Shown here piece after piece: positions 1 to 15,745 of a DNA stretch of 34,629 bases. Numbering within the stretch: the stretch's first letter is position 1; each line of letters starts with the position of its first letter. Both the position numbers and the translations under genes were made by a program. The notes under the pieces are model-generated. The model had not been told where the DNA came from. It worked only from the letters and a program-made list of their open reading frames with translations, and did no database searches. Origin of the DNA: Deltaproteobacteria bacterium (lineage in GTDB: Bacteria > Myxococcota_A > UBA796 > CAJQPC01); contig JADJYZ010000037.1 in assembly GCA_016719515.1 (NCBI GenBank), positions 1 to 34,629 on the forward strand, given 5' to 3'.

Positions 1-67
1 GAGGCGTTGTTCTCGACCGAGAGGGTGCCTTCCACCGAGGAGAGGGCGTCGAGGCCCGAGAGGCTCG

Positions 68-1237
68 TCAGCGCGCCGTTGTCGCGGACATAGATCTCCC
101 CGCCACAGAGGAGAGGGCGTCGAGGCCGGAGAGGCTCGTGAGCGAGCGTTGTTGTCCGCAAAGGCCCCCTTCGACTGTGGAGAGTCCCTCGAGGCCGGAC
201 AGGCTTGTCAGCGCGCCGTTGCCATAGATGTAGAGGTCCCCGGTGACGGAGGAGAGGCCCCCAAGGCCCGAGAGGCTCGTCAGCGCGGGGTTGCTGTAGA
301 CATCGATGGCCACCTCTACGAAGGAGAGCCCGTCGAGGCCCGCCAAGCTCGTCAGCGCGAGGTTGCCCTCGACGAAGACGCCCCAGCTCACCGAGGTGAG
401 GCCCTCAATGCCCGAGAGGCTCGTGAGCGAGGGGTTGTCGAAGACCGCGAGGCTCCCCCCCAACGAGGAGAGGCGCCCAAGCCCCTCGAAGCTCTCCAGC
501 GTCTCATTGCCCGTGATCTCAACGTCCTCGACCACATAGGTGAGGCCATCCAGCCCAGAGAGGCTCGTCAACAATGGATTAGAATCAATGAAGACTCTCC
601 CGTCTACAGTGGTGAGGCCCTCCAGGCCCGAGAGGCTCGTCAGCTTCTGATTGCGGGAGATGTAGACGTCGCCTCCAACGGTGGTGAGTCCCTCAAGCCC
701 ATCGAGGCTCGTCAGCACGTCGTTGAAGAGGATGTAGAGGTCTCCGCCCACTGTGGAGAGGTTCTCAAGGCCGACGAGGTTCGTCAGGTAGGGGCTGACG
801 GGGAGGTTGAGCTTCCCGCCGACGGCGGTGAGACAGCCCAAGGTGGCGACCTCCTCTTGCGTGGCGAGCGAGAGGGCGAGCTGGCCGCTGACGCTCCGCG
901 TACAATACCCCGGGCAGAAGTCCGCAAAATCCCCCATCAGATCTCCCTCAAGCTCATCATGGGGCAGCCACCCCAGCGGGTCTGTGTCGTCACAGTCGTC
1001 TGCGAGCCCGAACCCGTCGCCGTCCCCGTCGTCGTCCAGCGTGCTGGGATCGCAGTCGTTGTCTACGCCGTCGAAGGGCAGCTCTTCGCCGCCTACGGCC
1101 GGGTCGGCGTCGTCGCAGTCCTCCGCCGCGACGAGGCCGTCACCGTCCGCGTCTTGGGGATCGGTCTGGGGGTCGTCCCCCCTCGATGGGTCGGCGCATG
1201 CGGAGAGGAGGAGGGCGAAGGTGAAGGAGAGACGCAT
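68..1237 (-). CDS. LRR-like repeat lipoprotein with MopE-like Asp/Cys metal-binding motif. The 3' end appears frameshifted and the repeat array continues to window position 1 in another frame.
   Basis: The N-terminus MRLSFTFALLLSAC fits a signal peptide plus lipobox. DCDD/DNDCD motifs follow. After those come roughly 22-aa repeats (LTSLSGLEGLTTVGGDVYISRN...). The 5' leader is homologous to that of the next gene. In another frame, positions 1..101 still encode perfect repeat units (GEIYVRDNGALTSLSGLDALSSVEGTLSVENNA). Confidence 0.7.
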   Translation of the reverse strand: MRLSFTFALLLSACADPSRGDDPQTDPQDADGDGLVAAEDCDDADPAVGGEELPFDGVDNDCDPSTLDDDGDGDGFGLADDCDDTDPLGWLPHDELEGDLMGDFADFCPGYCTRSVSGQLALSLATQEEVATLGCLTAVGGKLNLPVSPYLTNLVGLENLSTVGGDLYILFNDVLTSLDGLEGLTTVGGDVYISRNQKLTSLSGLEGLTTVDGRVFIDSNPLLTSLSGLDGLTYVVEDVEITGNETLESFEGLGRLSSLGGSLAVFDNPSLTSLSGIEGLTSVSWGVFVEGNLALTSLAGLDGLSFVEVAIDVYSNPALTSLSGLGGLSSVTGDLYIYGNGALTSLSGLEGLSTVEGGLCGQQRSLTSLSGLDALSSVAGRSMSATTAR

Positions 1238-1366
1238 CGTGGCTCCGACATGATCCGCTCGGCGGGATCAGGAGGTTCATCCTCCCTGAGTCGCCGATCG
1301 GCGCATCCGATCATACAAAATTGTGACTCAAGCGCCAAGCGCCAAGCTCCAGGCGCAGGGGAGGCT

Positions 1367-3928
1367 TTAGCTCGGGCAGGTGCCGAGGTTGTTGTTGTTG
1401 GTCAGCGTGCCGCCAAAGGAGCTGAGCTGGGCGACGAGGGCGTCTACGTCGTCTTCACAGAGGTCGTCATTGTATCGGATCGTGAGGTCTCCGCCCACCG
1501 TGGTGAGGCCGTCGAGGCCCGAGAGGCTCGTCAGCGCGTCGTCGTTCTGAAGGGTGAGGGCCCCGCCCACCGAGGACAGCCCGCTGAGGCCCCAGAGGTC
1601 GGTCAGCGCGGGGTTGTTGAGGATGTACAGGTCTTCGCTCACGGAGCTGACGCCTTCGAGGCCCGAGAGGCTCGTCAGCGCGGGGTGATCTGTGATGTAC
1701 AGGAGCCCGCTCACGGCGGAGAGGCCGCCAAGCGCGGAGAGGCTGGTGAGCGAGGCGTTCGTCTCAAGGTACACGTGCCCGCCTACGGAGGTGAGGCCTT
1801 CGAGGCCCGAGAGGCTCGTCAGCGCGGGGTTCTCGTAGACCGCGAGGTCCCCGCCGAGGGCCGTGAGGCCGTCGAGGCCCATGAAGCTCAGCAGCGCGTC
1901 GTTGCCCACGACGGAGAGGTCGTCGCCAACAAAGCTGAGGCCCTCAAGGCCGGTGAGGCTCGTCAGCCCGTCGCTGCCGTTGATGGTGATCGTCCCGCCC
2001 ACAGAGGACAGGCCATCGAGGCCCGAGAGGTTCGTCAGGCCGTCGTTGTTGTACAGGCTGAGGTCACCCCCGACGGTCAGGACACCTTCTAGGCCCGTGA
2101 GGCTCGTCAGCGCCCCGCTGCTGGTGATGTCGAGCGTCCCGCCCACGCTGGTGAGGCCCGAGAGCGCCGAGAGGCTCGTCAGCGCGGGGTGTGTGCTGAT
2201 GGTGAGATCCCCGCCCACGCCGGTGAGGCCCTCCAGGCCGGTGAGGCTCGTTAAACGAGGGTGGGCGCCGATAATCAGCCGTCCACCGACCGAGGTGAGG
2301 CCCGAGAGGCCCGAGATGCTTGACAGGTTGCTGTTGGAGGTGATCAACAGGCCTCCCGCCAACGAGGTGAGGCCCTCAAGGCCGGTGAGACGCTCCAATG
2401 CGTAGTTTCCGAAGATGTGAGTCTCCCCACCGATGAAGGTCAGGCCCGAGAGCCCCGAGAGGTCTGAGAGCTGATAATTGTAGTCAATGGTGACGTCTCC
2501 ACCCACGGAGGAGAGGTTCTCAAGGCCCGAGAGGGTGGTTATCGTCCTGTTGCTGTACACGATGAGATCCCCGTCGATGGCGGTGAGACAGGTCAAGGCG
2601 GCGACGTCGGTGGTCTTGGCGGCGGAGAGGTCCAGATCTCCGCCGATGCGCCGCTCACAGTACCCCGTGCAGAAGAAGGAGGTGAAGCTGGCGCCCAGAT
2701 CGCCAGAGTACGTGTCAAGGGCCAGCCACCCGAGCGGGTTGGTGTCGTCGCAGTCGTCCGCCACGGCGAAGCCGTCGCCGTCGAGGTCATCGTCGGCGGT
2801 GCTCGGATCACAGTCGTTGTCGACGCCGTCATAGGTGATCTCGACCGCGTCGGGGCTCACCGCCGAGTCGCCGTCGTCGCAATCGTCCGCCGCGACGAGG
2901 CCGTCGCCGTCGAGGTCGTCGTCGGGGGTGCTCGAATCACAGTCGTTGTCGACGCCGTCGTAGGGTAGCTCTGCGCCGCCCACGGTTGAGTCGCCGTCGT
3001 CGCAGTCCGCCGCCGCGACGAGGCCGTCGCCGTCGAGGTCGTCGTCGGGGGTGCTCGAATCACAGTCGTTGTCGACGCCGTCGTAGGGTAGCTCGGCGCC
3101 GCCTACGGTGGAGTCGCCGTCGTCGCAGTCCGCCGCCGCGACGAGGCCGTCGCCGTCGAGGTCGTCGTCGGGGGTGCTCGGATCACAGTCGTTGTCGACG
3201 CCGTCGTAGGGTAGCTCGGCGCCACCTACGGTTGAGTCGCCGTCGTCGCAGTCGTCCGCCGCGACGAGGCCGTCGCCGTCGAGGTCGTCGTCGGGGGTGC
3301 TCGGATCACAGTCGTTGTCGACGCCGTCGTAGGGCAGCTCTGCGCCGCCTACGGCTGAGTCGCCGTCGTCGCAGTCGTCCGCCGCGACGAGGCCGTCGCC
3401 GTCGAGGTCATCGTCGGGGGTGCTCGGATCACAGTCGTTGTCGACGCCGTCGTAGGGTAGCTCGGCGCCGCCTACGGTTGAGTCGCCGTCGTCGCAGTCG
3501 TCCGCCGCGGCGAGGCCGTCGCCGTCGAGGTCGTCATCAGGGGTGCTCGGATCACAGTCGTTGTCGACGCCGTCGTAGGGCAGCTCGGCGCCGCCCACGG
3601 TGGAGTCGCCGTCGTCACAGTCGTCCGCCGCGACGAGGCCGTCGCCGTCGAGGTCGTCGTCGGGGGTGCTCGGATCACAGTCGTTGTCGACGCCGTCGTA
3701 GGGCAGCTCTTCGCCGCCCACGGCGGGGTCGCCGTCGTCGCAGTCGTCCGCCGCGACGAGGCCGTCGCCGTCGCCGTCCTGGGGCTCGGTGTCATCCTGC
3801 TTGTCCTCCGCGGGCTCTTTGTCGCCGCAGGCGGAGAGGAGGCTGAGGGCGAGCGCGGCGGCGAGGAGCGGGCGCATCGGGGCTCCAACGGTGATCCCGT
3901 CGATGGGACCGTGCGTGTACGACACCAT
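1367..3928 (-). CDS. Large surface lipoprotein with eight tandem 41-aa MopE-like putative metal-binding repeats, a Cys-containing cap, about 20 LRR-like 22-aa repeats and a Cys-flanked C-terminal tail.
   Basis: Signal peptide and lipobox (LSLLSACGDKEP). Repeats of the form DGDGLVAADDCDDGDSTVGGAELPYDGVDNDCDPSTPDDDL. A cap with FFCTGYCERR. LRR-like units (LTSLSGLEGLTSVGG-L-I--N). Tail of the form CEDDVDALVAQLSSFGGTLTNNNNLGTCPS. GC3-rich codon usage. Confidence 0.85.
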   Translation of the reverse strand: MVSYTHGPIDGITVGAPMRPLLAAALALSLLSACGDKEPAEDKQDDTEPQDGDGDGLVAADDCDDGDPAVGGEELPYDGVDNDCDPSTPDDDLDGDGLVAADDCDDGDSTVGGAELPYDGVDNDCDPSTPDDDLDGDGLAAADDCDDGDSTVGGAELPYDGVDNDCDPSTPDDDLDGDGLVAADDCDDGDSAVGGAELPYDGVDNDCDPSTPDDDLDGDGLVAADDCDDGDSTVGGAELPYDGVDNDCDPSTPDDDLDGDGLVAAADCDDGDSTVGGAELPYDGVDNDCDSSTPDDDLDGDGLVAAADCDDGDSTVGGAELPYDGVDNDCDSSTPDDDLDGDGLVAADDCDDGDSAVSPDAVEITYDGVDNDCDPSTADDDLDGDGFAVADDCDDTNPLGWLALDTYSGDLGASFTSFFCTGYCERRIGGDLDLSAAKTTDVAALTCLTAIDGDLIVYSNRTITTLSGLENLSSVGGDVTIDYNYQLSDLSGLSGLTFIGGETHIFGNYALERLTGLEGLTSLAGGLLITSNSNLSSISGLSGLTSVGGRLIIGAHPRLTSLTGLEGLTGVGGDLTISTHPALTSLSALSGLTSVGGTLDITSSGALTSLTGLEGVLTVGGDLSLYNNDGLTNLSGLDGLSSVGGTITINGSDGLTSLTGLEGLSFVGDDLSVVGNDALLSFMGLDGLTALGGDLAVYENPALTSLSGLEGLTSVGGHVYLETNASLTSLSALGGLSAVSGLLYITDHPALTSLSGLEGVSSVSEDLYILNNPALTDLWGLSGLSSVGGALTLQNDDALTSLSGLDGLTTVGGDLTIRYNDDLCEDDVDALVAQLSSFGGTLTNNNNLGTCPS
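2790..3780. repeat. Tandem 123-bp (41-codon) near-identical direct repeats, about 8.4 copies, inside the lipoprotein gene.
   Basis: Near-identical nucleotide blocks recur with 123-bp period. An example block is gagtcgccgtcgtcgcagtcgtccgccgcgacgaggccgtcgccgtcgaggtcgtcgtcgggggtgctcggatcacagtcgttgtcgacgccgtcgtagggtagctcggcgccgcctacggtt. Confidence 0.8.
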
Positions 3929-3969
3929 GGAGGCCGCAACAGGCGGGATGGATCACCCCCTCGTGAGGC

Positions 3970-4062
3970 TCAGGAGCTCGGGCAGGTGCCGGATTTTTTG
4001 CCGTTGACCACCGAGCCCGAGAAGGCGGTGAGCCGGGCGAGGAGCGCGTCCACCTCCTCGCC
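3970..4062 (-). pseudogene. Relic 3' end of a third LRR-lipoprotein paralog. It encodes ...EEVDALLARLTAFSGSVVNGKKSGTCPSS followed by a stop.
   Basis: Translation of the minus strand gives a tail homologous to the C-terminus of the 1367..3928 product (EDDVDALVAQLSSFGGTLTNNNNLGTCPS). The upstream residues in the same frame (APPSLRRHPRG, reaching into the poly-G tract) are not repeat-like, and no upstream gene body is attached. Confidence 0.5.
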
Positions 4063-4094
4063 GCGAGGGTGGCGTCGTAGAGAGGGTGGTGCTT

Positions 4095-4112
4095 GGGGGG
4101 GGGGGGGGGGGG
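4095..4112. repeat. Homopolymeric G tract of 18 nt in the upstream region of the lipoprotein gene.
   Basis: The run of G is read directly from the sequence. Confidence 0.9.
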
Positions 4113-4151
4113 CCATCCAGCCCATCGGTCAGCGAAGCCCGTGTTGTTCGA

Positions 4152-4168
4152 GGGGGGGGGGGCCCCCC
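4152..4168. repeat. G11-C6 homopolymer pair.
   Basis: The sequence aggggggggggggcccccctc is read directly. It is 40 nt downstream of the G18 tract. Confidence 0.9.
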
Positions 4169-4271
4169 TCTGCGCGGCGTTGTCAACGCCATGGAGACGC
4201 GGGGCGTGGCGCCTCAACGCCGACCTCCCGTCTCAGCGGGCCGGGGCGCGGGGCCCGCTAAGCCGGAGCCA

Positions 4272-5804
4272 CTACGCAGGCACCCCCGCCGCCACCGTCA
4301 ACGCCGGCCGCGGCGACTCCTCCCCGCGCGCCGCCCGCGCCACGGAGTGCGGCGCGAACTCCGCGAACGCCCGCTTGTAGTCGGCAAACGCGCCCCCCGC
4401 GCGCACGGCGTGCATCACCGCGAGGCCGGTCTGGGCGTCGCCCTGGGCCAACACCGCCTCCACCCAGGCCCAGCGGGCGGAGGTGGCGCGCAGCTCGACG
4501 CGGCCGCGGCTGGGCTTAAACGCCGTCTCCAGGCGCTTGAGGCGGGACTCCACCACCTTGAGGCCCACGAAGCCGTCATTGAGCATGGGCGTGTTGAGCT
4601 TGGGCACGAAGGGCGCCATGCCGATGGCGACGGGGTGGATCGCGCCGAGCTCCAAGGAGAAGCGCACGAGCTCGTCGAGATCGGCGTCGGTCTCGCCGGG
4701 CACGCCGATCATCATGTAGACCTTGAGCACCTTGTAGCGGTGCTCGGCGGCCTGGCGGGCGCAGTCGATGAGGTGCTGCTCGGTGGTGCCTTTGGACATC
4801 TCCCGGCGTAGGCGCTGGCTCGCGGCGTCTGAGGCCACGGTGAGGGTGCTGTAGCCGCCTTGGCGCAGAAGCTCGGCGATGCGGGGCTTGCGGGCCACAC
4901 GGTCGGCGCGCAGGGAGCTGATGCCGACGCCCTTTCCGGCGGCGATCAGCGCCTCTAAGATGGGCACCAGCTCGGGGTGATCGGAGATCGCCGCGCCGAC
5001 GAGGCCCACCCGGGGGGCGTAGTCGGGGACGAGGGAGAGCACGCGGTCGGCGGTGACCAGGCGCATCCCGCCGTTCGTGCTGCGGCGCATCACGCAGAAG
5101 GTGCACTGGCGATGGCAGCCGCGCTCCCCCTCCAGCAGAAACATGCTGGAGAGCTCGGCGTCGGGGGCGATGATGCGGCTGCGGGCGGGGAGCTCGGCGT
5201 CGGAGGCCTTGGCGATGGTGGGCAGGCGGTCGCCGTCGCGGTCGGGCAGGTAACCGCCGGGCAGGGCGGCCACGGCGGCGCGCAGGGCGTCCAAGCCGCC
5301 GGAGATCGCGGCCTCGACGGCGGGCACCACCGTCTCCTCAGCCTCGCCCAAGAGCATGGCGTCGACAAACGGCGCGGCGGGGAGCGGGTTCGAGAAGGTG
5401 AGCGGGCCGCCGAGCAGCACCAGGGGGTCGTAGCCCGTGCGATCTTCGCGGCGGGCGGGGATGCCCGCGAGCTCGAAGGCCGTGAGCATCCCGGCGAGCT
5501 CAAGCTCGTAGGCCAAAGACACGCCGATGATGGGGAAGTCCCGCAGCGGGGTCTGCGTCTCGTAGGTGCACAGGGGCAGGCGGGAGCGGCGCCAGGCGTC
5601 TACGTCGTCGGGTAAAAACGCGCGCTCGACGGCGAACCCGGCGCGGGTGAGCAGCTCGTGAATCCACTGGAAGCCAAGGGACGACATGCCCGCGCGGTAC
5701 GGCGAGGGGTAGAGCAGGGCCACGCGCGCCTGACCGGGGGTGAAGCCCGGCCCACGCTCGCGGGCGAGGCGCTCGACGATCGGCTCGTTGTGCTTCCAGG
5801 GCAT
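4272..5804 (-). CDS. Radical SAM protein with an N-terminal B12-binding-like domain, of the TIGR03960-like uncharacterised rSAM family.
   Basis: CxxxCxxC motif (CHRQCTFC). The N-terminal RVALLYPSPYRAGMSSLGFQWIHELL matches the conserved start of this family. Confidence 0.85.
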   Translation of the reverse strand: MPWKHNEPIVERLARERGPGFTPGQARVALLYPSPYRAGMSSLGFQWIHELLTRAGFAVERAFLPDDVDAWRRSRLPLCTYETQTPLRDFPIIGVSLAYELELAGMLTAFELAGIPARREDRTGYDPLVLLGGPLTFSNPLPAAPFVDAMLLGEAEETVVPAVEAAISGGLDALRAAVAALPGGYLPDRDGDRLPTIAKASDAELPARSRIIAPDAELSSMFLLEGERGCHRQCTFCVMRRSTNGGMRLVTADRVLSLVPDYAPRVGLVGAAISDHPELVPILEALIAAGKGVGISSLRADRVARKPRIAELLRQGGYSTLTVASDAASQRLRREMSKGTTEQHLIDCARQAAEHRYKVLKVYMMIGVPGETDADLDELVRFSLELGAIHPVAIGMAPFVPKLNTPMLNDGFVGLKVVESRLKRLETAFKPSRGRVELRATSARWAWVEAVLAQGDAQTGLAVMHAVRAGGAFADYKRAFAEFAPHSVARAARGEESPRPALTVAAGVPA

Positions 5805-5881
5805 AGACTTCCTGCGAGGGGGGATGTACAGGTTATGAAGGTTCGAGCCCGCGCGCCCGCGCTTGTGAGGATTCTCCCCCT

Positions 5882-6616
5882 ATGCTGTCGTCCCTCGCCG
5901 TGCTGCTCCTGGGTCTAGCCCCCGCTGAGGCCGCGGAGTCCGTCTCCCTCCGTTACCTGCTCGCCGTCGATGGTGAGGTCATCGGGCACCGCGATCTCAA
6001 GATCAACTACCTGCCCACGGACTCCGGCGAGCTGCGGCTCATGGAGTCGTTCACCGAGCTCACCTTCTCCATCGCCGGGCAGCCCTACACCTACAAGCAG
6101 CGCCTCGGCGGCCTGGGCGGCGGCAACTTCAGCTCGGCGATCAGCGACAACGGCACCGGCCGCGAGGTGCAGGCCGTGCGATCCAGCCTCGGCTGGACGG
6201 TCACCGTCGCTGAGGGCAAGACGGCGGAGGTCTACGCCTTGGGCCCCGCGGCCTTTGACCTCACCTCCCTCTCCTTGCTCGATCCCGCCGTGGCCGAGAG
6301 CCTCGCCGGGCGCAGCACGCTCAAGGTGCTCGTCGCCGAGACCGGCGGCGTGATGGAGGGCCCCCTTCGCCAGGCCGCCGACGTGCAGATCAAGCTCGGC
6401 GGCCAGATGATCACCTGCGACGAGTACGTCTGGAGCGTGCCCGAGGGTGAGGTCCGCCTGGACTACGGCCCTGAGGGCCACCTGATGCGCTACACCACCC
6501 GGGTCGCGGGCAAGGTCATCACCGCGACGCTGGACCGCCCTCCCCCGCCGCGCACCTACGGCACGACCATGGACGGGCCGCTGATTCAGTCGAGCGTCGG
6601 CGAAGAGACGCTCTAA
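5882..6616 (+). CDS. Secreted hypothetical protein.
   Basis: Signal peptide MLSSLAVLLLGLAPAEAAES. Non-artefactual composition. Divergent from the rSAM gene. Confidence 0.7.
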   Translation: MLSSLAVLLLGLAPAEAAESVSLRYLLAVDGEVIGHRDLKINYLPTDSGELRLMESFTELTFSIAGQPYTYKQRLGGLGGGNFSSAISDNGTGREVQAVRSSLGWTVTVAEGKTAEVYALGPAAFDLTSLSLLDPAVAESLAGRSTLKVLVAETGGVMEGPLRQAADVQIKLGGQMITCDEYVWSVPEGEVRLDYGPEGHLMRYTTRVAGKVITATLDRPPPPRTYGTTMDGPLIQSSVGEETL

Positions 6617-7581
6617 ACGCCGCTGATCGCCTCCTCAAGGGCCCGGCGCACCTCAACCCGCACCATCTTCTTGCGCCAGGGCGCGGGCCAGACATGCGTC
6701 GAGAGCGGGCTCACCTGCTTATACGCGGCCTCGGCCACGGCCTCGACGCCGCCCGCCTCCCAGGCCTCGGCCACGCCGCCCAGCTCCACCGGGCGCGGGC
6801 CCACGGACGAGACGACCACGCGGGGGCCCCGATCCGGGTCAAAGGCCGCCGCCGTGAGCAAGAGCGGGTAGTCGATGCTGCCCCGGGCGCGCAGCTTGCG
6901 GTGAACCACACGGCCCGCGGGCGGCGGGGGCAAGATCACGGCGGTGAGCAGCTCATCCGGGGCGCGGCGGATCCAGTCGCGGCCGTCGTCGCCATACAGC
7001 GCGGCGACGGCCACCCGCCGGGCGCCCCGCGTAGACACCAGCTCCACCTCGGCGTCATAGAGCAGGAGCCCCGGCGCGGTGTCGGCGGAGTGCGCGGCGT
7101 AACAGCCCTTGCCTTTGGGGGCGACGTGGCAGATCGCCCCCTCGGGCGCGCTGTGGCACTTCAAGCAGCCGCCGAGCGCCCCCCGCCAGAACGTCGACTG
7201 GTTGTACCAGGCGCAGCGGGTGTCGAGCATCAGGTTGCCGCCCAGGGTGCCCATGGCCTGAATCGTAGACGTGGCGATGGTGCGTGTGGCGGCGGCCAAG
7301 GCCGGGTACAGGCTCAACACCCGCACGTCCCGACCCACCGCCCGCAGCGTGACGCCGGCGCCGATGCGTAGGCCGCCCGCCTCGGTGACGGAGATCTCTT
7401 GCAGCGCCGACACCCCACCCAGACGGATGAGCGTCGGCGGGGTGAACAGACCGTACTTCATCGAGGGCAGAAGATCCGTGCCCCCAGCGATGAGCCGGGC
7501 CTGGGGGTGGTCGGTCAGCATCTGCGCGGCGTCGGAGACGGCGCGGGGCGAGAGCACAGAGAAGGTCGGCAGCGGCAGCAT
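6613..7581 (-). CDS. Xanthine dehydrogenase family FAD-binding subunit (CoxM/XdhB-like).
   Basis: The N-terminal LIAGGTDLLPSMK motif is typical of FAD-binding molybdopterin dehydrogenase subunits. It is last in an S-L-M operon. Confidence 0.9.
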   Translation of the reverse strand: MLPLPTFSVLSPRAVSDAAQMLTDHPQARLIAGGTDLLPSMKYGLFTPPTLIRLGGVSALQEISVTEAGGLRIGAGVTLRAVGRDVRVLSLYPALAAATRTIATSTIQAMGTLGGNLMLDTRCAWYNQSTFWRGALGGCLKCHSAPEGAICHVAPKGKGCYAAHSADTAPGLLLYDAEVELVSTRGARRVAVAALYGDDGRDWIRRAPDELLTAVILPPPPAGRVVHRKLRARGSIDYPLLLTAAAFDPDRGPRVVVSSVGPRPVELGGVAEAWEAGGVEAVAEAAYKQVSPLSTHVWPAPWRKKMVRVEVRRALEEAISGV

Positions 7582-10430: not shown

Positions 10431-12653
10431 TCAGACGCGCTGGGCGCCTCGGGCGCGGCGCAGGCGATCGGACTCGCCTTCAGCGCGGCGGGCGGCGCGC
10501 ACCTCGTCCTCCAAGCGGCGCAGAGCCTCTCCGGCGGCGGAGACCCGGTCTTGCTCACCGATCAGCTCTTGGCGGGCTTTGCGGGCGGCGCCGCCGATGT
10601 CCAGGAGGCGCGCCGCCGTGGCCGTGAGCTTGGACTCCCAGCGGGCGTGCTCCTCTAAGGTGGCCTCGCGGTCGGCCTTGGCGGCGAGCAGCTCGGGGCG
10701 CTCGGTGGGGTCGGGGCGCTGACCGGCCTGCTCCATCGTCTCGACGCGGCGCATGCGGGCCTCGATCTGGGCGAGGTCTTGGGCGATGGCCTCGGGGCGC
10801 AGCTCTTTGAGGCGACCATCCAGGCGATCGGCCTCGGCGGCCAGGTCAGCGGCCTCGGCGCGCAGCTCGACGACGGTGCGGCGTAGGTCGGCCTCGGCGG
10901 GGGTGGGCAGCTCGGCCTGGCCGATCGCCAGCTCTAAGGCGGCGAGGGACTCCTCAACCCGGGCGAGGAGCTGGCCGCCGCGGGTCTTGGGCGGAGGCGG
11001 CGCGACCACCGGGGCGGCGACGTTCGGCGGCGCAGGGGCGGCGGCGGCAGGTTCAGCGGCGGCGGCGCCGCGCTCCACACGCACCTGGGGGCGGCTGGCG
11101 AGCAGCTCGGGCAGACGCTCGGGGGTGACGTGGGCGCGCAGGTCTCGGCCATAGGCCAAGGGCACCTTGTCGGCGTTGCGCCCGGCGTTGGAGGCGGTCA
11201 CCATCACGACGACGGAGATGAGGATCATCACCGGGAGCGCCGCCATGGCCGAGCCGAAGGTGAGCCCCACGGCGATGGCCCACAACACCCACATCGGCCC
11301 GAGCAGGTTGGGCAGGGTGCGCATCACGCGGTTCACCCGGCCATCTTCGTCCTCAGCGCGGCGGCGTTTTTTGGCGACGAAGCCCCGGCTCTCGGCCAAG
11401 GCGGCGAGGTTATCGACGGTGTCTTCGCTCACGCCAGAGACGAGGCGGAAGCGGCGCTGGTCGAGCACGGGGCTCACCAACAGGGCGTCGATGGGCAGCC
11501 CCGCCCGCAGCGCGACGCCGCGGGCGAGGAGCTCGGCGTCGGTGATCTCCGTGGACTCCGCCGTCCACTCTTCAGGGAGCTTGGGCAGGCCGAGCTGCAC
11601 CACCACCTTGTTGATCGCCTCGGCGGCGTAGCGGGCGCTCGTCTTGCCCGCCCGGGCGCTGCGCCGGGCGTGCCTGCGGCTGGCTTGGCTGGAGTGGCGC
11701 AGCTCCAGCTCAAAGCGGCCTTCAGGCAGGGCCAACGGCGCGGGCTCTAAGGTGTAGCTGGGCGGTGGAGGCGGCGGCGGGGGCTCGTCTTTGGGCGGCG
11801 CGCGGCGGTTTTGAGCCCGCGGCGGCGGGGCGACGATGCGCCCACGAAGGGCCTCGGCGACCTCAGCGGCGCCTTGGGGGCGCTCGTCTGGGGAGAGGCG
11901 CAAGAGCGCGTGGATGATGGCGCAGAGGTCGTCCGGCAGCTCAGGGCGCAGGCTGGCGAGGGGCTCGACCTCGCCGGAGAGCTGGCGTTTGAGCACGGCG
12001 GCGGCGTTTGGCCCGGCGAAGGGCGCCCGGCCTGAAGCGGCGTAGTACAGCACCGTGCCCAAGGAGTAGAGGTCGCTGCGGGGGTCGGCGCGCTCGCCGT
12101 CGTAGACCTCGGGGGCGGCGTGCCCGGCGGTGCCCAAGGCCCCGGTGTGCCGGGTGGACTGCCACTGCTCTAGCCGGGCGAGGCCAAAGTCGGTGAGCGT
12201 CGCCACGCCCGCGTCGTCGATCATCACGTTCGCCGGGGTGATGTCGCGGTGCAGCACGCCGGCGCGGTGGGCGGCGGCGAGCACGTCGGCCAGCCGCGCG
12301 CCGATGGCCCGCAGCGCCGTGCCGCCGATGGGGCCTTCAGCGGCCACCCGCTCGGAGAGGGTGCGGCCCGGGTGGTAGGGCATGGACAAGGCGAGGTGCC
12401 CGTCGAGCTCGTGCAGCTCTTGGGCCAAGAGCGCGCCCTCGTGTTTGATGAGCCCCGCCGTCATCACCTCGCGGCGCAGGCGCTCGCGGGTGGAGGCGTC
12501 GCCGACGAGGTGGGCGTGGAGGATCTTCAGCGCGACCCGGGCGCCGCGCACCCGATCTTCAGCGAGCCAGACCGTCGCCATGCCCCCACGGCCCAGCTCA
12601 CCGATGAGCGTGAACCGCTCACCGAGCACCGCGCCCCGGGCCAAGGCGCTCAA
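10431..12653 (-). CDS. Membrane-anchored Ser/Thr protein kinase. It has an N-terminal kinase domain, a Pro-rich linker, TM helices and a C-terminal coiled-coil.
   Basis: Kinase motifs GELGRGGMATVW, VALK, HRDITPANVMID and DFGLA. Hydrophobic segment NLLGPMWVLWAIAVGLTFGSAMAALPVMILISVVVMV. It ends 15 bp upstream of coxS. The start is TTG or GTG and uncertain. Confidence 0.85.
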   Translation of the reverse strand: MSALARGAVLGERFTLIGELGRGGMATVWLAEDRVRGARVALKILHAHLVGDASTRERLRREVMTAGLIKHEGALLAQELHELDGHLALSMPYHPGRTLSERVAAEGPIGGTALRAIGARLADVLAAAHRAGVLHRDITPANVMIDDAGVATLTDFGLARLEQWQSTRHTGALGTAGHAAPEVYDGERADPRSDLYSLGTVLYYAASGRAPFAGPNAAAVLKRQLSGEVEPLASLRPELPDDLCAIIHALLRLSPDERPQGAAEVAEALRGRIVAPPPRAQNRRAPPKDEPPPPPPPPSYTLEPAPLALPEGRFELELRHSSQASRRHARRSARAGKTSARYAAEAINKVVVQLGLPKLPEEWTAESTEITDAELLARGVALRAGLPIDALLVSPVLDQRRFRLVSGVSEDTVDNLAALAESRGFVAKKRRRAEDEDGRVNRVMRTLPNLLGPMWVLWAIAVGLTFGSAMAALPVMILISVVVMVTASNAGRNADKVPLAYGRDLRAHVTPERLPELLASRPQVRVERGAAAAEPAAAAPAPPNVAAPVVAPPPPKTRGGQLLARVEESLAALELAIGQAELPTPAEADLRRTVVELRAEAADLAAEADRLDGRLKELRPEAIAQDLAQIEARMRRVETMEQAGQRPDPTERPELLAAKADREATLEEHARWESKLTATAARLLDIGGAARKARQELIGEQDRVSAAGEALRRLEDEVRAARRAEGESDRLRRARGAQRV

Positions 12654-12729
12654 CCGCGCACCGGAGGCACCCGACCCGAGCTTGTCTGACGCGCCGCTTC
12701 AGTCACTGAGCACTTCCCTCCCCTGCTCC

Positions 12730-13561
12730 CTATTGTGGGGTGGCCGCCGCTGGCAAACCTTTCCCCAAACGGGCCATGGTGACCCACGCGGCGACGTCAT
12801 CGACCTCCCAAGAGTTGTCGGACCCACGCCAGAGCAGGCGGCCGTCACCGTCGAGCACCAGGATGTGCAGGCTGTGGAGGATGTCGCCTTGGCTCTCGAC
12901 CCGGCTGGCCCCGGCGCGTAACAACAGCGTCTTGAGCGCGTCGAGCTCTAAGCGGGCGAAGGTCCACGTGGGCGGGGTTCGCGCCGCGCTCGGCGCCGTA
13001 GGCCTTGAGCACCTCCAGAGAGTCCCGGGCGGGGTCCAGGGTGACGCTCACGATGCGCCCGTGGCCGAGCTGGCCTTGAAGCTCCTTGAGCTTGCTCGCC
13101 AACAAGGGGCAGGCCTCGGGCATGGGGCAAGACGTGAACAAGAAGGTGAGCACCGTCGGCACGCCTTGGCCCGCGCCGATGAGCACCGGGCCGTCCACGC
13201 CGGGCATCGTGAGCGCCGGGAGCTGCTCCCCTTCAGCCAGGGCGATCACCGCGTCGGGGGCCAGGGCCAGGGGCTCCTCGTGGCCGGTGACCTTGGCGCC
13301 GATGATCCGCACCGTGCCGTCTTCAGCGGTCATCAGGTTCGCCTGGATGAGATCCCCAGGGCGAAGCTGCCGGGCGAGGTTGGGATCGACGACGAAGGTG
13401 GTGGCGCCCTCCTCAAAGGCGCCGGGCACGGGGCCGTGCTCCAGCCGCACGCTGTGCTGGCCGACGTCGCGCACCACGCCGTTGACGGAGTAGGTGTCTC
13501 CAGCGACAAAGTTACAGCCGGCCAAGGCGAAGACGGCGATGAGCCCGCGCATCAGAGGCAC
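12730..13561 (-). CDS. SCO1/SenC family copper chaperone lipoprotein. An apparent frameshift near 12964-12980 interrupts it.
   Basis: Lipobox LAGC. Thioredoxin-like CxxxC (FTSCPMPEACP). The conserved C-terminus WTFARLELD...HSLHILVLDGDGRLLWRG lies in the adjacent frame (ORF 12730..12924). Confidence 0.75.
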
Positions 13562-13636
13562 CTCCTGAGGTTGGCAAGCCTATTCACGCGGGCGCGCCGC
13601 GTCGACGGGGCGTCGTGTCGCGGGTAAACTCCTCAG

Positions 13637-13858
13637 ATGCCCGAGTCTCCCGAGATCCCCGCCTCTTTGCCACGACGCGCCCTGCGGCGGGCGGGCAGAG
13701 CCGCGCTCAAGGCTCTGGGCGGCGCGGTGTATTACGCGATCTACCGCGAGCTGCCGAACCCCAACGATCCCGACCCCTACTGGCGTGAGATGCACCCCGA
13801 CCAAGACAAAGGCACGGGGCGCCAAGGTGGGGACTTTGAGCCCCCGCCGGGGATCTGA
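13637..13858 (+). CDS. Small hypothetical protein of 73 aa.
   Basis: The ORF lies immediately upstream (10-nt gap) of the large membrane protein gene. Codon bias is mixed and there is no clear SD. Confidence 0.3.
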   Translation: MPESPEIPASLPRRALRRAGRAALKALGGAVYYAIYRELPNPNDPDPYWREMHPDQDKGTGRQGGDFEPPPGI

Positions 13859-13870
13859 GGTCACACGCTG

Positions 13871-15745
13871 ATGCTCCCGCCGCTGCTGCTGTGGATCGGG
13901 CTCACCGCCTTCGCCCAAGACCCTGGGCCCCTCGTGGGCGACCTCTTGGGGCCGATGCCCCCGGCCACGACGCTTCGGGATGTAGACGTTCACCCGGAGT
14001 ACATCCGGCTGCGCTTCACCACCGACCGCGACTTCATCGTTGAGCTGACCCCACGCCGTGACGGCGCCTCGCCGGTGTGCAGCGGCGGCGGCGCCGATCT
14101 GTACGTGCGCCTCGACCTCGACGCCGATCAAGAGAGCTTCGACTGGGAGCCCCTGCCGCCCATCGTCGATCAGCTCTGCGCCCGGATGGTGGACCACCCG
14201 CCGCGGTTCCCGACCTCGGAGAAGGTGTTGGCCCCCGTCGCGCCGCCGCCGGATCCCGAGCGCCCGGCGCTGCCGTTTCGACCGATGCACGTCGTCGGCG
14301 TCCTCTGGGCGGTGGCGGTCCTCGCCGCCCTGCCGCGGGCGCCCTTGGCCTGGGGGGTGGGCCTCGTCGCGCTCTTGATCCGCCTGGGGCTCTCCCCGCG
14401 CTGGATCCTCGTCGGCGGCGACGCGGCCTATGAGCGCCTGCTCGACGCGAAGGGGCGCGGCGACTCAAACCCCTACTACGGCGACGGCTGGCAAGGGTTG
14501 ATGGGCCTCGTGTACACGCTCCTGGGCGAGCCCAAGACGACGGACTGGGTTCACCTCACGAACCTCGGCTTCTCGGCCTTGACCGTGGTGGCGCTCGTGG
14601 GGCTGATCTCGGCCTTGGGGGGCAGCCCCCTCGCCGCGGGCCTCGCCGGGCTCGTGTTGGCCGCGGCCCCGCTGCCGGTGCGGCTGGCGGCCACAGAGAC
14701 CGACTTTGTGCTCGTCGGGCTCGTGCAGGTGCTCGCGCTCTACGGCGCGGCGCGTGGGGATCGCCGCGGGGCGGCCCTCGCCGCGCTCTCTGTGGGCCTC
14801 TCCGTTCACCTGCGGCCCCTGGGCGGCGCCTTCGCGCTTCTGCCCTTGGGCATGCTCGCCTGGCGGCGCTCGGCCTGGGCCGTCGTGTTGGGCCTGGGGC
14901 TCTGCGCCTGGCGCGCGGTGGAGCTGCTGCCGCTCGTGCGGGAGGGCAGCGGCGTGGGGGTCATCCCCTTCGGTCGGCTCCTAGAGACGGACTTCTGGGT
15001 CAAGCGCCTCAACCCCTTGGGCCGCGCCCCGGCGCTGCACCTCAGCCCCTTGTGGTCGCCGTTGGCGTTGCCGCTCCTCGCCGTCGCCGCGGTGCAGCTC
15101 TCCAAGCCCGAGACCCGCCGCGCCTGGCTCTGGCCCTTGGGCTTGGGCATCGTGCTCAGCGAGCTGCCGTACCTGCCGAAGACCTCTCCCTTCGGCGATC
15201 CCCTGCGGTTTTTGCTCCCGGCGACGGCGATGTGGGCGGGGCTCGCGGGGTTTGGCGCGGCCTTGGCCTGGGAGCGCGGCGCCAAGGCCCGCCTGGTCCT
15301 GGCGGTGGCGGCCCTGAGCTTCGTCCCCCCTTGGCTCAGCGGCCAGCCGCGCTGGACGTGGCAGGTTGAGCACCTGGCCTTCGTCGAGGCCACCCGACTC
15401 GCCCCCGAAGGCGCCGAGGTGCTCTTTGACCCGGCCTTTGACGAGAACGGCAAGATCAGGATGTGGCTCAACACCCGGGGCGGGGCGCGGTGGCGGCCTT
15501 GGGCGCTGGGAGAGACCCCCGCCGAGGGCGCCCTTGTTTACCTCGGCAGCGCCGATCACCACCGGCGTTTAGAGGCTAGCGGCGCCGGGCCGAGCTTGGC
15601 CCAAGGCTGCGCGCTCACGCCGCTGACCACGATGGACCTGCCGCCCGAGACCGACGGCTGGATTGAGCTCGGCGACGCGCCGATCCCCGCCGGGCTCTAC
15701 CGCGTCGGGGCCTGCGGCCAGGGCTCAGGCTCCCCAAACCCCTGA
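13871..15745 (+). CDS. Polytopic membrane protein with an N-terminal periplasmic domain. It may be a GT-C-type glycosyltransferase-like protein.
   Basis: Signal-like N-terminus, then many hydrophobic segments. SD gaggt upstream. GC3-rich. Confidence 0.75.
   Translation: MLPPLLLWIGLTAFAQDPGPLVGDLLGPMPPATTLRDVDVHPEYIRLRFTTDRDFIVELTPRRDGASPVCSGGGADLYVRLDLDADQESFDWEPLPPIVDQLCARMVDHPPRFPTSEKVLAPVAPPPDPERPALPFRPMHVVGVLWAVAVLAALPRAPLAWGVGLVALLIRLGLSPRWILVGGDAAYERLLDAKGRGDSNPYYGDGWQGLMGLVYTLLGEPKTTDWVHLTNLGFSALTVVALVGLISALGGSPLAAGLAGLVLAAAPLPVRLAATETDFVLVGLVQVLALYGAARGDRRGAALAALSVGLSVHLRPLGGAFALLPLGMLAWRRSAWAVVLGLGLCAWRAVELLPLVREGSGVGVIPFGRLLETDFWVKRLNPLGRAPALHLSPLWSPLALPLLAVAAVQLSKPETRRAWLWPLGLGIVLSELPYLPKTSPFGDPLRFLLPATAMWAGLAGFGAALAWERGAKARLVLAVAALSFVPPWLSGQPRWTWQVEHLAFVEATRLAPEGAEVLFDPAFDENGKIRMWLNTRGGARWRPWALGETPAEGALVYLGSADHHRRLEASGAGPSLAQGCALTPLTTMDLPPETDGWIELGDAPIPAGLYRVGACGQGSGSPNP

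Follow-up and report, generated by a model that had tools for sequence, protein, structure and literature searches.

The minus-strand stretch at 3970-4059 in the 34,629-nucleotide contig analyzed here (the window) is very probably a scar, the non-functional 3′ remnant of paralog A, the gene that heads a tandem array encoding LRR/MopE surface lipoproteins in an uncultured Myxococcota bacterium. Judged from sequence, the relic is the apparent positional orthologue of the 3′ end of paralog A. An earlier note on this DNA had read a lipoprotein tail followed by a stop on the minus strand here, and this was confirmed, with EEVDALLARLTAFSGSVVNGKKSGTCPSS preceding a TGA and matching the C-terminal tail of the downstream lipoprotein, paralog B (CEDDVDALVAQLSSFGGTLTNNNNLGTCPS, 1370-1459). 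The check proposed in that note, a tblastn search of the last 30 aa of paralog B against the whole window, returned the relic site at E = 5.9e-8 with 50% identity over 28 aa (14/28). This was the one tail-like match in the window besides B's own tail, and it covers the conserved cap; the next matches were generic LRR repeats at E >= 0.036. Against the paralog A tail of the relative L001 the relic matched at E = 3e-13 with 66% identity, and its last 88 nt were ~84% identical to the 3′ end of the intact paralog A of L163 (local score 106, compared to 21.6 +/- 2.8 for shuffled sequences). Taking L163 and L001 together, this 88-nt match had 84-86% identity and scores of 106-116, against about 21 +/- 3 in shuffles. 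The tail module of the family, ...[DE][DE]VDAL.A.L..F.G.V.N....GTCPS(S) directly before a stop, is present in the relic, and the lipobox, MopE repeats and Receptor-L/LRR body that precede it in one frame in member genes are absent. The relic forms the 3′ end of a mechanically called 51-aa ORF (3970..4125, minus strand), whose N-terminal part reads a run of 18 C as APPPPPQ. No Pfam family was matched by this ORF and the upstream frames hold only frameshifted LRR traces, so the relic is a fragment and not a member gene.

The same locus was recovered from relatives using the neighboring radical-SAM gene as anchor, and the nucleotide identity of this gene to the window is given as anchor identity (Table 1). 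An intact orthologue was found at the same genomic position in a close relative, as paralog A of L163, which ends ...AVVNSKNTGTCPSS. In L001 a 391-aa stump, whose DNA shares 97% identity with the last 1018 nt of A in L163, begins right after the stop of a PtuB gene, and a single blastn segment (window 4054..3446 to L001 15548..16161, 80.5%) aligns the relic, leader and 5′ end of B with the A tail, leader and B. The proposal that the window holds the relic of a third paralog was therefore borne out, both by the full-length gene with a matching tail in L163 and by the truncated version in L001, which is colinear with the window. Among close relatives with 90-99% anchor identity the locus exists in five states: paralog A intact; A truncated by Septu genes; only 51, 29 or 13 codons of A left; one lipoprotein gene and no relic; and no family member at all. 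The junction of radical-SAM gene, relic, leader and B was reproduced in L161 (assembled with SPAdes), L162 (MEGAHIT) and L039, a Nanopore MAG assembled with CANU (JADKFE010000010, isolate Rand_18-Q3-R56-63_MAXAC.001, contig named 'tig...') whose flanks are 98.6-99.1% identical to the window. Since two of these are short-read assemblies, the junction is not an assembly join. An assembly chimera at the poly-G tract was also considered and rejected, as the flanks on both sides are colinear with the three other assemblies.

Table 1. Features of the window and arrangement of the same locus in relatives (anchor identity to the window in brackets)
Feature or locus	Position	Strand	Description
Probable relic of the paralog A C-terminal tail	3970..4059	minus	29 codons at 3973-4059, EEVDALLARLTAFSGSVVNGKKSGTCPSS; TGA at 3970-3972
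Degenerate trace of the final one or two LRR units of A, frameshifted	4060..4196	minus	Upstream limit uncertain, between 4135 and 4196
G18 homopolymer	4095..4112	plus	C18 when read on the gene strand; lies within the degenerate remnant; ccctccgccccatcgccc in sister strains
G11 then C6	4152..4168	plus	G6C11 on the gene strand; G11 at 4152-4162; sister strains have ggggcctc[c/a]ccc
GC-rich hairpin	4236..4258	minus	GCGGGCC-N9-GGCCCGC, just behind the radical-SAM stop; pairing extends to about 12 bp in the fold
B12-binding/YgiQ-type radical-SAM gene	4272..5804	minus	Conserved anchor; its 3′ end is the left border of the variable region
Leader, relic stop to B start	3881..3969	minus	89 nt; GGAG 6-9 nt before the ATG; same leader after every family tail
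Paralog B, lipoprotein	1367..3880	minus	837 aa from M17; ORF 1367..3928 is 853 aa, true start M17 at 3880
Paralog C, lipoprotein	1..1237	minus	Start MRLSFTFALLLSAC at 1237; runs off the left edge of the window
Window, L039 (98.6%), L161 (99.0%), L162			Radical-SAM gene, about 75 nt to the remnant, relic, leader, B; L162 holds only the last ~30 nt of the radical-SAM gene
L163 (96.5%)	5213-6820		Intact paralog A (535 aa) immediately follows the radical-SAM gene and has a lipobox, MopE repeats, an LRR body and the tail ...CEDAVDALIAQLTTFTGAVVNSKNTGTCPSS
L001 (95.6%)			Radical-SAM stop, ~15 nt, PtuA, PtuB, 391-aa LRR + tail ORF without N-terminus, leader, short paralog B
L081 (97.7%)			PIN toxin/pentapeptide block, relic of ~51 codons ...GLESLRVVGDDVEIGENAALCEDEVDALLAQLTLFSGRGTTTGNTSTCLSS + leader, S9 peptidase gene, 13-codon relic VTNTDNLGTCPNS + leader + lipoprotein start
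L003 (90.7%)			One 512-aa lipoprotein, no relic
L165-L170 (90.6%)			No tail or N-terminal family match; in L165-L167 (downstream flank present) a ~930-nt uncalled gap, then unrelated genes

Across these genomes homology breaks 3-20 nt from the radical-SAM stop, and the cargo found there differs by strain. In L001 a complete Septu pair occupies 11552-14436 in place of the 5′ part of A, with PtuA (497 aa, 11552-13045) and PtuB (464 aa, 13042-14436) identified by PADLOC at 1.8e-39 and 2.7e-29, respectively, and by the Pfam families AAA_21/AAA_15; this adjacent pair of AAA ATPase and HNH-like genes is absent from the window. In L081 the cargo at the same site (2766-6140) encodes a PIN-domain toxin, a 199-aa protein without family match and a 349-aa pentapeptide-repeat protein, none of which was matched in PADLOC. 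In the mechanism that we favor, the ancestor would have carried paralog A directly downstream of the radical-SAM gene, and the few bases after the radical-SAM stop would be a hotspot at which foreign gene blocks, such as the Septu pair or the PIN-toxin block, come and go. Insertion or replacement at this hotspot would have removed A from its 5′ side, by an amount that varies by lineage. In the lineage of the window all of A but roughly the last 230 nt would have been lost, leaving the final 29 codons in frame and the preceding LRR unit or units frameshifted and decaying. The remnant would thus make up most of the intergenic DNA upstream of B, contiguous with the ~90-nt leader, and would encode no working protein. 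We infer this order of events, and likewise that the remnant persists simply because the deletions stopped short of the leader and regulatory DNA of B. The earlier note had taken the site as a footprint of recombination or deletion among tandem paralogs; the five locus states in close relatives agree with a footprint, but its form looks like one of nested 5′ deletions and replacements rather than of simple unequal crossing-over between paralogs. The arrangement resembles the gene remnants (5′-truncated pseudogene stumps) found at genomic and defence-island insertion sites in having a functional homologous neighbor, truncated and intact orthologues, and decay of the upstream frame, and in bordering a region that holds Septu or PIN-toxin blocks in some strains and none in others. 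It differs from such island-border remnants in that no integrase, att site or mobile-element end was identified at the relic locus, and the lineage of the window is now without an island.

One observation that does not sit easily with a remnant of A left in place is that the relic is 84-86% identical to the A of L163 and L001 while the anchor is 96% identical, and a diverged A-like copy may therefore have been its source. The relic might also have arrived by copying, if a segment reaching from inside the tail of another paralog through B had been placed next to the radical-SAM gene. We consider this quite unlikely. Tail and leader units do turn up in various settings, such as behind the peptidase gene of L081, the relic is only about 85% identical to A, and the array is mosaic, the window and L039 sharing 66% identity in the LRR body of B and 99% in the flanks. 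Copying would, however, require more events than deletion in place, the relic lies in the position of A relative to the radical-SAM gene and B, as in L001, and it is closest to the A tail, with 66-72% amino acid identity compared to 50-54% for the B tails. A remnant of A left in place thus remains the preferred reading.

A further observation was made in L081, where the B coding sequence is absent and the leader joins the DNA that follows the B stop in L001 (L081 6300-6410; 96% identical from L081 6401). The removal is clean, between look-alike start (gATGCGCC) and stop (cCTGAGCC) contexts, which, in this single case, points to a microhomology-mediated deletion. The tail and leader unit might more generally be the standard joint for the gain, loss and swapping of LRR-lipoprotein cassettes in this clade, with the tail end, stop context and leader supplying homology or microhomology and the relics arising as by-products. 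The clean removal of B in L081, the occurrence of relics in three contexts and LRR bodies that are mosaic between 99%-identical strains hint at such a joint, an idea to which we give a small chance of being right.

The earlier note had also stated that no repeat body is attached upstream of the relic. This needs a correction, as a frameshifted trace of one or two LRR units, colinear with A, was detected in the sister assemblies. Upstream of the relic L039, L161 and L162 read LRGVDNAAQRG..LPLDQNSSLTSFDGLDALRPIAQHHPLR in a different frame, colinear with LAGLDGLTAVGGDVMIRDNEALTSFVGLERLASVGDDLEIR of A, and tblastn of this extension, ...LTSFDGLDALRPIAQH..., to the last LRR units of A gave E = 3e-4 (306-nt subject). 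At the nucleotide level the extension toward A in the sister assemblies was equalled by 4/500 shuffles, whereas in the window itself it was not above chance (276/500 shuffles reached the score). The homology to A is thus significant in L039 and L161 and not in the window alone, where the extension is undetectable because it is overprinted by two homopolymer tracts. From these alignments, about 230 nt of A appear to survive in the sister strains, the distal 140 nt of them frameshifted. Over 4060-4172 the window and L039 are 69% identical, compared to 97-100% in the flanks, and when the 197 nt that separate the relic from the radical-SAM gene were searched against 160 loci, the only match was in L039.

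The two homopolymer tracts, G18 and G11, are the only homopolymers of more than 7 nt in the 34.6-kb window and lie 215-290 nt upstream of the lipoprotein start; in 1.36 Mb of the loci of relatives there are only three runs of 10 or more. The poly-G tract into which the earlier note has the relic frame run, read as C18 within the 51-aa ORF, is unique to this one assembly. L039, L161 and L162 agree with each other at both tract sites and none carries the runs. In the first of these stretches, 3/5 of the non-C bases of the sister strains match LRR consensus codons. Together with the agreement among the sisters, this indicates that the imperfect sequence is the ancestral state and that the window alone has acquired pure runs. 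The runs could be a real and recent burst of slippage and mutation in one strain, or a local consensus error in a Nanopore-based MAG. The naming of L039 matches the activated-sludge Nanopore/CANU MAG set of Singleton et al. 2021, which was polished with Racon, Medaka and HiSeq X reads (PMC8012365), and the locus-tag series and MAG naming suggest that the window is from the same study. L039 shows many frameshifts in its repeat-rich lipoprotein array and the window shows one, in paralog C. With the window apparently from the same Nanopore/CANU set as the frameshifted L039, an assembly error at G18/G11 is plausible. A two-colour Illumina poly-G artefact was considered unlikely given the use of HiSeq X, if the window is from the same study as L039.

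Long G/C runs near a surface-protein gene bring to mind phase variation, in which the relic and the G18/G11 tracts would form a slipped-strand switch for the surface lipoprotein, or the relic would serve as a silent donor cassette for gene conversion of tails. Poly-G/C promoter tracts upstream of surface-protein genes act as homopolymer contingency loci in Neisseria and Haemophilus, and the rarity of such runs in the window and among its relatives, together with their place a few hundred bases upstream of a lipoprotein gene, is what the window has in common with them. Here, in contrast, the runs occur in one assembly, probably Nanopore-based and from a set in which array frameshifts make assembly error plausible, and no tract length polymorphism was seen among the strain assemblies. 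The three sisters, two of them short-read assemblies, carry imperfect, ancestral-looking C-rich sequence and no homopolymer at either site, so that length variation between strains at a fixed homopolymer, the mark of a phase switch, was not found. Silent partial cassettes for antigenic variation are known as Neisseria pilS, Borrelia vls, Mycoplasma genitalium MgPar and the Anaplasma msp2 pseudogenes; the relic is like them as a promoterless partial copy of a surface protein beside expressed paralogs at a strain-mosaic locus. Such a donor system is recognized by several partial copies of the variable region and mosaic tracts, and neither was found, the relic being a single 29-codon copy of a conserved end cap, and not of a variable part of the protein, with frameshift decay and no conversion tracts. 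The relic is also only 50% identical to the tail of B, which speaks against recent conversion. We therefore hold both a phase-variable switch and a donor cassette to be very unlikely.

Both relics in the long-read assemblies are annotated in GenBank as hypothetical proteins, MBK9368453.1 / IPN01_19440 (window 3970-4116, identical) and MBK9644897.1 / IPO67_07050 (L039 11677-11829). A real small protein of 48-51 aa, as this annotation implies, is extremely improbable in our judgment, even though an ATG-initiated ORF of similar length is present in 4/4 strains and was called by gene callers in several assemblies. Against it, the N-terminal half is frameshifted between the window and the other strains, the peptide upstream of EEVDAL reading APPPPPQAPPSLRRHPRG in one case and PSAPSPSTILYDATPRG/R in the other, and no Shine-Dalgarno sequence was found before either relic-ORF ATG. 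What the strains share is the motif that caps a large LRR domain, with the domain itself missing. Within its 29 codons the window, L039 and L161 differ by about 7-8 changes (V/I, G/S, K/N, S/T, A/T, N/Y, K/N), and every one of them is nonsynonymous. The resulting 8 nonsynonymous to 0 synonymous changes in three strains reveal no protein-level constraint and are compatible with neutrality (P about 0.1 under a 3:1 expectation), though so few changes do not allow a formal test. The relic thus appears to fit a decaying fragment and not a conserved small protein, and both GenBank entries are probably spurious gene calls on gene scars.

Every remnant found is truncated at its 5′ end, and behind each lies the ~90-nt leader that is also present before every paralog. 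This raises the possibility that the relic is retained as DNA, if the tail and leader carried the promoter or operator of the next paralog and only deletions that spare them were tolerated. We regard this as possible but less than probable. In its favor, 4/4 independent truncations (to 391, about 51, 29 and 13 codons) lost the 5′ side and kept the stop and leader, and no orphan N-terminal fragments were found. In addition, the leader survives the loss of the B coding sequence in L081, where it now precedes the S9 peptidase gene, and the 89-nt leader is identical in all four strains (the window, L039, L161 and L162). The last of these carries little weight, as zero differences in 89 nt are expected ~1 time in 3 at around 1.2% divergence and the identity is not significant. 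A scan of 3800-4350 found no sigma-70-like promoter or intrinsic terminator, though myxobacterial promoters may not fit such a scan; the promoter region in which the earlier note places the relic is therefore a presumed one. Moreover, the polarity would also be produced, without selection, by a hotspot anchored on the 5′ side, and, to judge by the 13-codon relic of L081, no more than about 40 nt of tail would have to be kept, which leaves the rest of the window relic unexplained. Because so little tail suffices in L081, the hotspot is favored as the explanation and regulatory selection is a possible addition to it.

The leaders showed no excess RNA structure compared to shuffles (z from -1.0 to +0.4; z = -0.2 for 3881..3969), and an Rfam search over 1-6000 gave nothing at E <= 1. 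Short palindromes are present on the minus strand upstream of the ribosome-binding sites, GGTCCC-ATCGAC-GGGATC before B (3899-3916) and TGATCC-N8-GGATCA before C (1251-1272); their arms are conserved and their loops differ. The ~97 nt after the radical-SAM stop (4175-4271, minus strand) fold into two strong hairpins without a U-tract (-55.9 kcal/mol, z = -2.8), and 1/200 shuffles folded equally well. The alignments with L001, L081 and L163 break off at window 4268, 4254 and 4269, respectively, which is at the GC-rich hairpin of Table 1 or slightly upstream of it.

That the ...GTCPS tail is a conserved module of this family, as had been claimed, was upheld by a wider search. A word-indexed protein search that used the C-terminal 87 aa of B as query gave only 3 matches, and a full HMMER scan was needed. 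A profile of 41 positions built from four tails, scanned with HMMER against 1.84 billion cluster representatives, matched 37 proteins at E <= 1e-3, of which 7 reached E <= 1e-10, and in about 27/37 of them the best tail match ends <=3 residues from the C-terminus. Each LRR domain of the multi-domain proteins P0013 and P0021 is closed by the motif N..LC..[DE]VDAL..L...N.G.CP, after which the next domain starts. The tail, N..LC.[DE][DE]VD.L[VL]AQL..F.G.V.N..N.G.CP, is in this respect like the C-terminal capping motifs of LRR/Receptor-L (PF01030) domains, having two conserved cysteines and closing an LRR domain at the C-terminus or at internal domain ends, and the cysteines and position suggest a disulfide-stapled end cap. 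Compared to known capping motifs, the 51-aa relic ORF has no Pfam family and the structural role is proposed from position and cysteine pattern. Tiny tail-only ORFs with an unrelated N-terminus occur among the matches, namely P0007 (from the window), P0010, P0024 and P0026, indicating that similar scars or frameshift fragments are not rare. P0001 (70 aa) was considered as a further relic and rejected, being part of a longer gene that is broken by a frameshift in another Nanopore MAG. The tail-stop junction GGCACCTGCCCGAGCTCCTGAGCC was also sought as an exact pattern in metagenome contigs, with 0 matches.

The genes downstream of the relic are themselves variable. Paralog B begins with a lipobox (MRPLLAAALALSLLSAC), its ATG preceded by GGAG at 6-9 nt, and contains MopE-type metal-binding repeats (eight; PF11617, 2.6e-30) and a Receptor-L/LRR region (PF01030, 3.6e-16). 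The eight repeats are near-identical units of 41 aa (123 nt) at window 2780-3780 on the minus strand, and their alignment with L039 occurs in several shifted registers, which suggests differences in copy number. The 5′ part of B is 93-95% identical to L039 down to about window 2307; beyond this point, the LRR body (window 1370-2307 vs L039 13621-14054) is at ~66% identity and ~500 nt shorter in L039, and the tails differ. The frame of paralog C breaks near 90-160 (minus strand), where it ends in ...VEGGLCGQQRSLTSLSGLDALSSVAGRSMSATTAR and a stop, and another frame carries a perfect LRR reading, GGEIYVRDNGALTSLSGLDALSSVEGTLSVENN, on to the window edge. Either a real frameshift or an error in the long-read consensus accounts for the break. 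In a third MAG, L171 (JADJIW010000003.1; 396-3843 and 5979 onwards), at least three more paralogs were found beyond the end of the L039 contig, indicating that this lipoprotein family forms arrays of four or more genes.

The feature at 3970-4059 is then an ordinary gene remnant, and close relatives document it well with copies that range from intact through half-deleted to nearly erased. Its significance is mainly one of housekeeping, in that MBK9368453.1 and MBK9644897.1 are probably scars rather than genes, and the poly-G runs beside the relic should not be taken as a phase-variation switch before they are confirmed in reads. The locus is nonetheless a clear small example of fast turnover, in which a surface-lipoprotein array adjoins a defence-island hotspot and strains that are 96-99% identical elsewhere differ, and it may be of use in studies of surface variation or defence-island dynamics in uncultured Myxococcota.
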